Of a stretch of DNA of 64,000 bases, positions 228 through 245 are shown piece after piece; position 1 is the stretch's first letter, and each line of letters starts with the position of its first letter. The position numbers were made by a program, and so were the translations under genes. Location of the stretch: assembly GCF_003334405.1 (NCBI RefSeq), contig NZ_QOWM01000004.1; one strand, 5' to 3'. Origin of the DNA: Escherichia coli (GTDB lineage Bacteria; Pseudomonadota; Gammaproteobacteria; Enterobacterales; Enterobacteriaceae). Under the pieces are notes generated by a model. That model was not told the origin of the DNA. It did no database searches and saw nothing but the letters and a program-made list of their open reading frames with translations.

Positions 228-245
228 TGTTTAGCATATAAAACA
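228..245 (+). promoter_or_regulatory. Candidate NadR operator upstream of nadA-pnuC
   Basis: Near-palindrome TGTTTA-N6-AAAACA about 75 bp upstream of the nadA start; resembles the NadR half-site TGTTTA. Confidence 0.4.

Follow-up and report, generated by a model that had tools for sequence, protein, structure and literature searches.

Transcription of nadA and pnuC in Escherichia coli is almost certainly controlled by the trifunctional repressor NadR through an operator, or NAD box, that corresponds to the 18-bp dyad at positions 228-245 of the DNA analysed here (the window, a stretch of 64,000 nucleotides from E. coli). This dyad had been put forward in a preliminary description as a candidate NadR operator for NAD-responsive repression, and the proposal is supported by the agreement with the NadR consensus, the placement on the promoter, the boxes found at nadB and pncB, the presence of an HTH domain in NadR, and the conservation of the box throughout the Enterobacterales. 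The site is not a new one: 228-245 is the already described NadR operator of nadA-pnuC, an ordinary textbook site, and within the NadR regulon published comparative genomics singles out the box at nadA-pnuC as the most conserved.

The first 1400 bases of the window show 100% identity to E. coli K-12 MG1655, with which the window as a whole is identical, and find a match in all 5426 complete E. coli genomes of the collection. The genes nadA, pnuC, zitB, ybgS, aroG, gpmA, gal, mod, bio, uvrB, and moa are arranged base for base as in NC_000913.3 from 781768. Window position x corresponds to NC_000913.3 x+781767 (the window being 781768-845767) and, in the older numbering, to U00096.2 x+780990, a conversion derived from the nadA ATG, which is 781308 in U00096.2 and 318 in the window. 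The regulated gene, nadA, encodes quinolinate synthase (318-1361, + strand), and the second gene of the operon, pnuC, encodes a nicotinamide riboside transporter (1399-2118, + strand). Both are open reading frames with RefSeq annotation, they are the pair that the preliminary description had placed downstream of the dyad, and they are treated in the literature as a single NadR-controlled operon. The NadR box is preceded by the last part of the lysT-valT-lysW-valZ-lysYZQ tRNA operon.

Several other features of the window were observed. Positions 1-72 form the lysQ end of the tRNA operon; within them, positions 1-41 give a partial, sub-threshold match to the RtT family, at the place where RefSeq annotates the RtT sRNA, and a hairpin, AAAAAAGCGCCCTAAAGGCGCTTTTTT, is found at about 46-72 with flanking runs of A and T. 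This hairpin looks like the intrinsic terminator of the tRNA operon, and it was not among the elements called by the scan tool. The Rfam matches above the gathering score are a molybdenum-cofactor riboswitch upstream of moaA (35145-35289), two copies of naRNA4 (24092-24162 and 55821-55891), and two copies of ES036 (33839-33880 and 50543-50585), all of them known features of the region. The naRNA4 and ES036 families are probably derived from REP elements.

The dyad (228-245, unstranded) was originally reported as a near-palindrome of the form TGTTTA-N6-AAAACA located about 75 bp upstream of nadA. The window reads TGTTTAGCATATAAAACA, exactly as claimed, and contains a perfect 5+5 inverted repeat, TGTTT-N8-AAACA; the distance was roughly right, the dyad starting 90 nt, being centred 81.5 nt, and ending 72 nt before the ATG at 318. 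The consensus operator of NadR is TGTTTA-N6-TAAACA, attributed to Penfound and Foster (1999) and to Gerasimova and Gelfand (2005) (PMC2330245, PMC2330246). The nadA box agrees with it at 11 of the 12 specified positions, and the only departure is an A for T at box position 13 (window 240), in the right half-site. No other sequence on either strand of the 64-kb window matches the NadR consensus with one mismatch or fewer. According to 100 dinucleotide-preserving shuffles, 0.14 such matches are expected in the window, which scales to about 0.0007 for the 317 bp upstream of nadA.

The regulator itself is encoded by nadR (b4390 in the MG1655 genome). Its Pfam domains are HTH_3 (residues 7-59, E 5.4e-9), CTP_transf_like, and AAA_28 (residues 234-394), that is, an N-terminal HTH, a nucleotidyltransferase-like domain, and a kinase-like domain. 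In the same genome, nadB carries TGTTTAGTAAATTAAACA, with 0 mismatches to the NadR consensus, together with a second box, TGTTTAGCAACTGTAACA, which has 2 mismatches and is located 74 bp upstream of the first; pncB carries TGTTTATTGTACTAAACG, with 1 mismatch. The three good consensus matches examined in the genome are those of the three genetically defined NadR targets, nadA, nadB, and pncB. As for nadR, the 8 kb surrounding the gene in E. coli (NC_000913.3 4622000-4630000) yielded no NAD box at up to 2 mismatches; autoregulation of nadR is mentioned in the literature for some enterobacteria. The gene begins 21 bp after radA, with which it may be co-transcribed.

The position of the box relative to the promoter can be fixed to the base. 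The hexamers GTGACT (200-205, + strand, -36 to -31) and TATCTT (223-228, + strand, -13 to -8), separated by 17 bp, are taken as the -35 and -10 elements of the main nadA promoter, the former judging from its conservation and the mapped start, and the latter from its conservation and a dominant 5′-triphosphate end 8 nt downstream. Read in this way, the two hexamers predict a start near 234-238. Cappable-seq, which detects 5′-triphosphate ends, maps a start on the + strand at U00096.2 781226, the A at window 236, with a score of 136.3, and minor nadA ends at 248 (score 1.6) and 285 (score 3.8) (PMC4782308). The start-site table of Kim 2012 contains for nadA only a weak 5′ end, at window 282, from which the box would span -54 to -37. 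The ends at 282 and 285 are regarded as the same minor or processed species, and window 236 is taken as the main start of nadA-pnuC because of the Cappable-seq score there, compared with that at 285. The nadA transcript has in consequence a 5′ untranslated leader of 82 nt (236-317, + strand). Counted from A236, the box spans -8 to +10, with its centre at +1.5, and T228 is shared by the box, as its first base, and by the -10 hexamer, as its last. A consensus promoter scan of window 1-400 called no sigma-70 site at a threshold of 9/12, since GTGACT and TATCTT together match at only 8/12.

An alignment of 19 genera is in line with this arrangement. Outside the box, the only strongly conserved upstream columns are GAC at 202-204, T218, TAT at 223-225, and T227-T228, the last of these bases being the shared one. 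The GAC is invariant or nearly so, TAT and T228 are invariant, and T227 is present in 18 of the 19 genera. The start base, A236, is also invariant.

Relative to the pncB start mapped in Kim 2012, the box of that gene covers +12 to +29 and is likewise within the polymerase footprint. In addition, the opposite strand of the box spacer in the pncB-pepN intergenic region (NC_000913.3 990386-990414, outside the window) reads TACAAT, and a start in the pepN direction is located 8 nt downstream of it, with a Cappable-seq score of 39.4 and an entry in Kim 2012 as well. The -10 element of this divergent start would be inside the pncB NAD box, so that bound NadR would cover it too. To our knowledge, no control of pepN by NadR has been reported.

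Binding of NadR to the nadA-pnuC promoter has been studied in Salmonella. In electrophoretic mobility shift assays (EMSA), NadR binds this promoter, ATP and c-di-GMP inhibit the binding, and NAD restores it; the same inhibition and restoration are obtained with a nadB promoter fragment (PMC12421817). Deletion of nadR raises the levels of nadA and pnuC mRNA 8- to 10-fold, ChIP-qPCR places NadR at the nadA-pnuC promoter in vivo, and a promoter-reporter responds (PMC12421817). The E. coli protein is described in reviews as the repressor of the same genes, and it also binds c-di-GMP. A gSELEX paper calls NadR multi-target, citing unpublished data, and the main text of the PPTP-seq paper mentions neither NadR nor nadA. 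A literature text search for the exact 18-mer gave no match, and no NadR-binding experiment on an E. coli K-12 nadA fragment was found in the literature searched, to which Penfound and Foster (1999) and Grose et al. (2005) did not belong. The Salmonella nadA box is presumably the same as that of E. coli, since Citrobacter and other genera have an identical one. What supports carrying the Salmonella results over to E. coli is that all enterobacterial genera examined share an identical or nearly identical box, and NadR can be expected to bind the exact E. coli sequence.

The following mode of action can be proposed. A NadR dimer would contact both half-sites, TGTTTA and AAAACA, with the Cro/C1-type HTH domains at its N termini, and would take its DNA-bound state when NAD fills the nucleotide pocket; the dimer and the effector logic come from the literature, the effector work having been done in Salmonella. 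Since the box extends from the last base of the -10 element to +10, with the start at its centre, NadR bound at -8 to +10 would compete sterically with RNA polymerase for the core promoter, and exclusion of the polymerase is the most likely repression step. When NAD is plentiful, both the de novo synthesis of quinolinate and the uptake of nicotinamide riboside would be shut off. When NAD falls, ATP (or c-di-GMP) would occupy the pocket, NadR would come off the DNA, and the operon would be transcribed.

The conservation of the box was followed in nadA loci from a scan of one genome per species, which returned 80 loci, of which 66 were analysed (24 from Enterobacterales and 42 from the outgroup). 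The Enterobacterales sample includes Escherichia, Citrobacter, Enterobacter, Erwinia, Pantoea, Serratia, Yersinia, Pectobacterium, Rahnella, Providencia, Photorhabdus, and Arsenophonus. In all 24 of these loci the box is found 81-95 nt before the nadA ATG, with one mismatch or fewer in 20 of them and two mismatches in the other four. None of the 42 outgroup loci (Vibrionales, Alteromonadales, Aeromonadales, Acinetobacter, and others) has a box with one mismatch or fewer, and four contain two-mismatch matches, at scattered positions. According to the literature, the DNA-binding (HTH) domain is restricted to the NadR of Enterobacterales, and the distribution of the box agrees with that of HTH-bearing NadR. 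In the 19-genus alignment, the mean information is 1.86 bits in the half-sites vs 0.39-0.51 bits in the flanks; the flanking intergenic DNA is diverged or scrambled among genera, and the box is near-invariant. Most genera have AAAACA as the right half-site, and Photorhabdus alone has TAAACA. Of the 5426 complete E. coli genomes, 5422 contain the 67-nt promoter/operator stretch, and the three divergent alleles that were inspected have substitutions only at positions that belong neither to the -35 and -10 hexamers nor to the box.

It could be argued that this block is conserved only as a core promoter and initial transcribed sequence (the end of the -10 element, the discriminator, and +1 to +10), with no repressor involved. 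The box does overlap the -10 element and the start site, and the spacer bases ATA at +1 to +3 of nadA are invariant across genera although the spacers of the nadB and pncB boxes differ. Nevertheless, contacts with the polymerase leave unexplained a strict two-fold symmetric conservation that extends to +10, as well as the recurrence of the same dyad at nadB and pncB, where its position relative to the promoter is different. Moreover, the block is absent from all 42 outgroup nadA promoters, yet these genes too need a promoter, and EMSA and ChIP place NadR at the orthologous promoter. Taken together, these data make a purely promoter-related conservation very improbable. Even less credit can be given to the idea that some other factor, recognising a similar AT-rich palindrome, uses the dyad as its operator, with NadR acting elsewhere or indirectly: nothing specific speaks in its favour, and against it stand the agreement with the NadR consensus at 11 of 12 positions, the fact that the good matches fall at nadA, nadB, and pncB, and a taxonomic spread that coincides with the distribution of HTH-bearing NadR in the literature. 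Finally, a chance near-palindrome in AT-rich intergenic DNA has a negligible probability. At least one one-mismatch match did appear in 12 of the 100 whole-window shuffles, and two-mismatch matches in other parts of the window (7089, 38547, 48441) are about as frequent as chance predicts (4 observed, 2.3 expected). The idea is nevertheless refuted by the conservation data: the box is invariant in 19 aligned genera amid scrambled flanks, it keeps a fixed spacing to the ATG in all 24 Enterobacterales, and it falls exactly on the start site.

Besides the NadR operator described above, two further blocks were noticed upstream of nadA. Pectobacterium, Serratia, Yersinia, Brenneria, and two Rahnella species have a second, weaker NAD box (e.g., TTTTAAGCATAGTAAACA), which is located about 155-165 nt before the ATG and 72-74 bp farther upstream than the main one (approximately seven helical turns). 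The nadA gene of E. coli is without this distal box, the spacing of which in the other genera equals that of the 74-bp pair at E. coli nadB. The presence of two boxes hints that, in some lineages, NadR binds cooperatively to two sites. The other block, GTTAAGCCTGTAAAACGAGA, is located just before the nadA ATG (window 291-310) and is conserved through Enterobacteriaceae and Erwiniaceae, with GTTAAG invariant in a 9-sequence alignment. It loosely resembles a degenerate NAD box, with 4 mismatches by eye in E. coli, and the equivalent block in several genera gives matches with 2-3 mismatches 28-35 nt before the ATG. This block may simply be the ribosome-binding region.

As regards the RNA, a role for the dyad itself was considered and rejected, since it forms a weak hairpin (-2.6 kcal/mol as DNA) and only its right half is transcribed. 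Further downstream, the leader contains a predicted RNA hairpin, CACCGAUAACAGCGAAUAUUACGCUAAUGUCGG, at window 252-284, followed by UUUU (to 288), so that the whole element corresponds to +17 to +53 of the nadA transcript and the arms to +17 to +49. The fold of 236-320 has an energy of -16.6 kcal/mol (z = -2.4). The minor 5′ ends at 282 (Kim 2012) and 285 (Cappable-seq) are at or just past the end of its 3′ arm. Hairpins of different sequence are found at the same place in the leaders of E. albertii, Citrobacter, Enterobacter Ag1 (in some Enterobacter), and Erwinia psidii, the other genera being mixed. The consensus fold over the whole leader alignment is weak (-0.41 kcal/mol), and for this reason the hairpin is not claimed to be conserved beyond close relatives. 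An Rfam scan of window 1-1500 assigned no family to the nadA leader, its two sub-threshold matches (RtT and AgrB) both falling in 1-72.

These features could be combined into an extended proposal, in which the known NadR operator would be accompanied by a second, as yet undescribed layer of control, with the leader hairpin acting as an attenuator, a pause site, or a determinant of processing and stability, and, separately, the A at position 13 and the ATA at +1 to +3 tuning affinity. This proposal is unlikely. If true, the position-13 A and the ATA may reflect a box that doubles as initial transcribed sequence, which could tune the affinity of NadR for nadA vs nadB.

A further start was observed within the operon. 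Cappable-seq reports it at window 1358 (+ strand, U00096.2 782348), with a score of 30.6 (PMC4782308). The distance from there to the nadA stop codon is 3 nt and to the pnuC ATG 41 nt, and a possible -10 element, TACACT, is found at 1347-1352. A pnuC promoter inside the end of nadA is implied. The consensus scan of the window, allowing up to two mismatches, found no NAD box near this start, and hence part of the expression of pnuC may escape NadR.

As a discovery, the operator carries little weight, since this regulatory site of a reference genome has been established for a long time. The value of the analysis is rather one of calibration: a real operator was recognised from raw sequence, and its position was fixed to base resolution (-8 to +10). 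Only small details are not stated in the literature surveyed, namely the placement of the box on the start site at base resolution, the A at position 13, the ATA at +1 to +3, and the distal box.

The closest known systems are the NadR operators of Salmonella enterica and E. coli themselves (nadA-pnuC, nadB, and pncB), with which the dyad shares the 18-bp consensus, the regulator, the operon, and the promoter-proximal placement. Nothing of substance differs from them, apart from the one conserved departure from the consensus at position 13; within E. coli, nadA has a single box, in contrast to the two boxes 74 bp apart at nadB. A second parallel is provided by BirA and the bio operator. BirA is another trigger enzyme and is listed together with NadR (PMC8249747). 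In both, a DNA-binding domain is joined to a biosynthetic or salvage enzyme, and the protein represses the operon of its own pathway. The likeness extends to repression at high levels of the end product or its adenylate and to an operator that overlaps the promoter, while the protein family, the operator sequence, and the effector are unrelated. In the case of BirA, the effector is biotinyl-5′-AMP. The bio operon is found in the same window (bioA/bioB, 26201-28617). In other bacteria, NiaR, NrtR, and NadQ likewise act at palindromic promoter operators to repress nadA/nadB and salvage genes (PMC2330245, PMC2330246, PMC5343134). These are, on the contrary, non-orthologous regulators with other motifs and effectors (niacin for NiaR and ADP-ribose for NrtR), and the nadA box of E. 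coli is outside their regulons.
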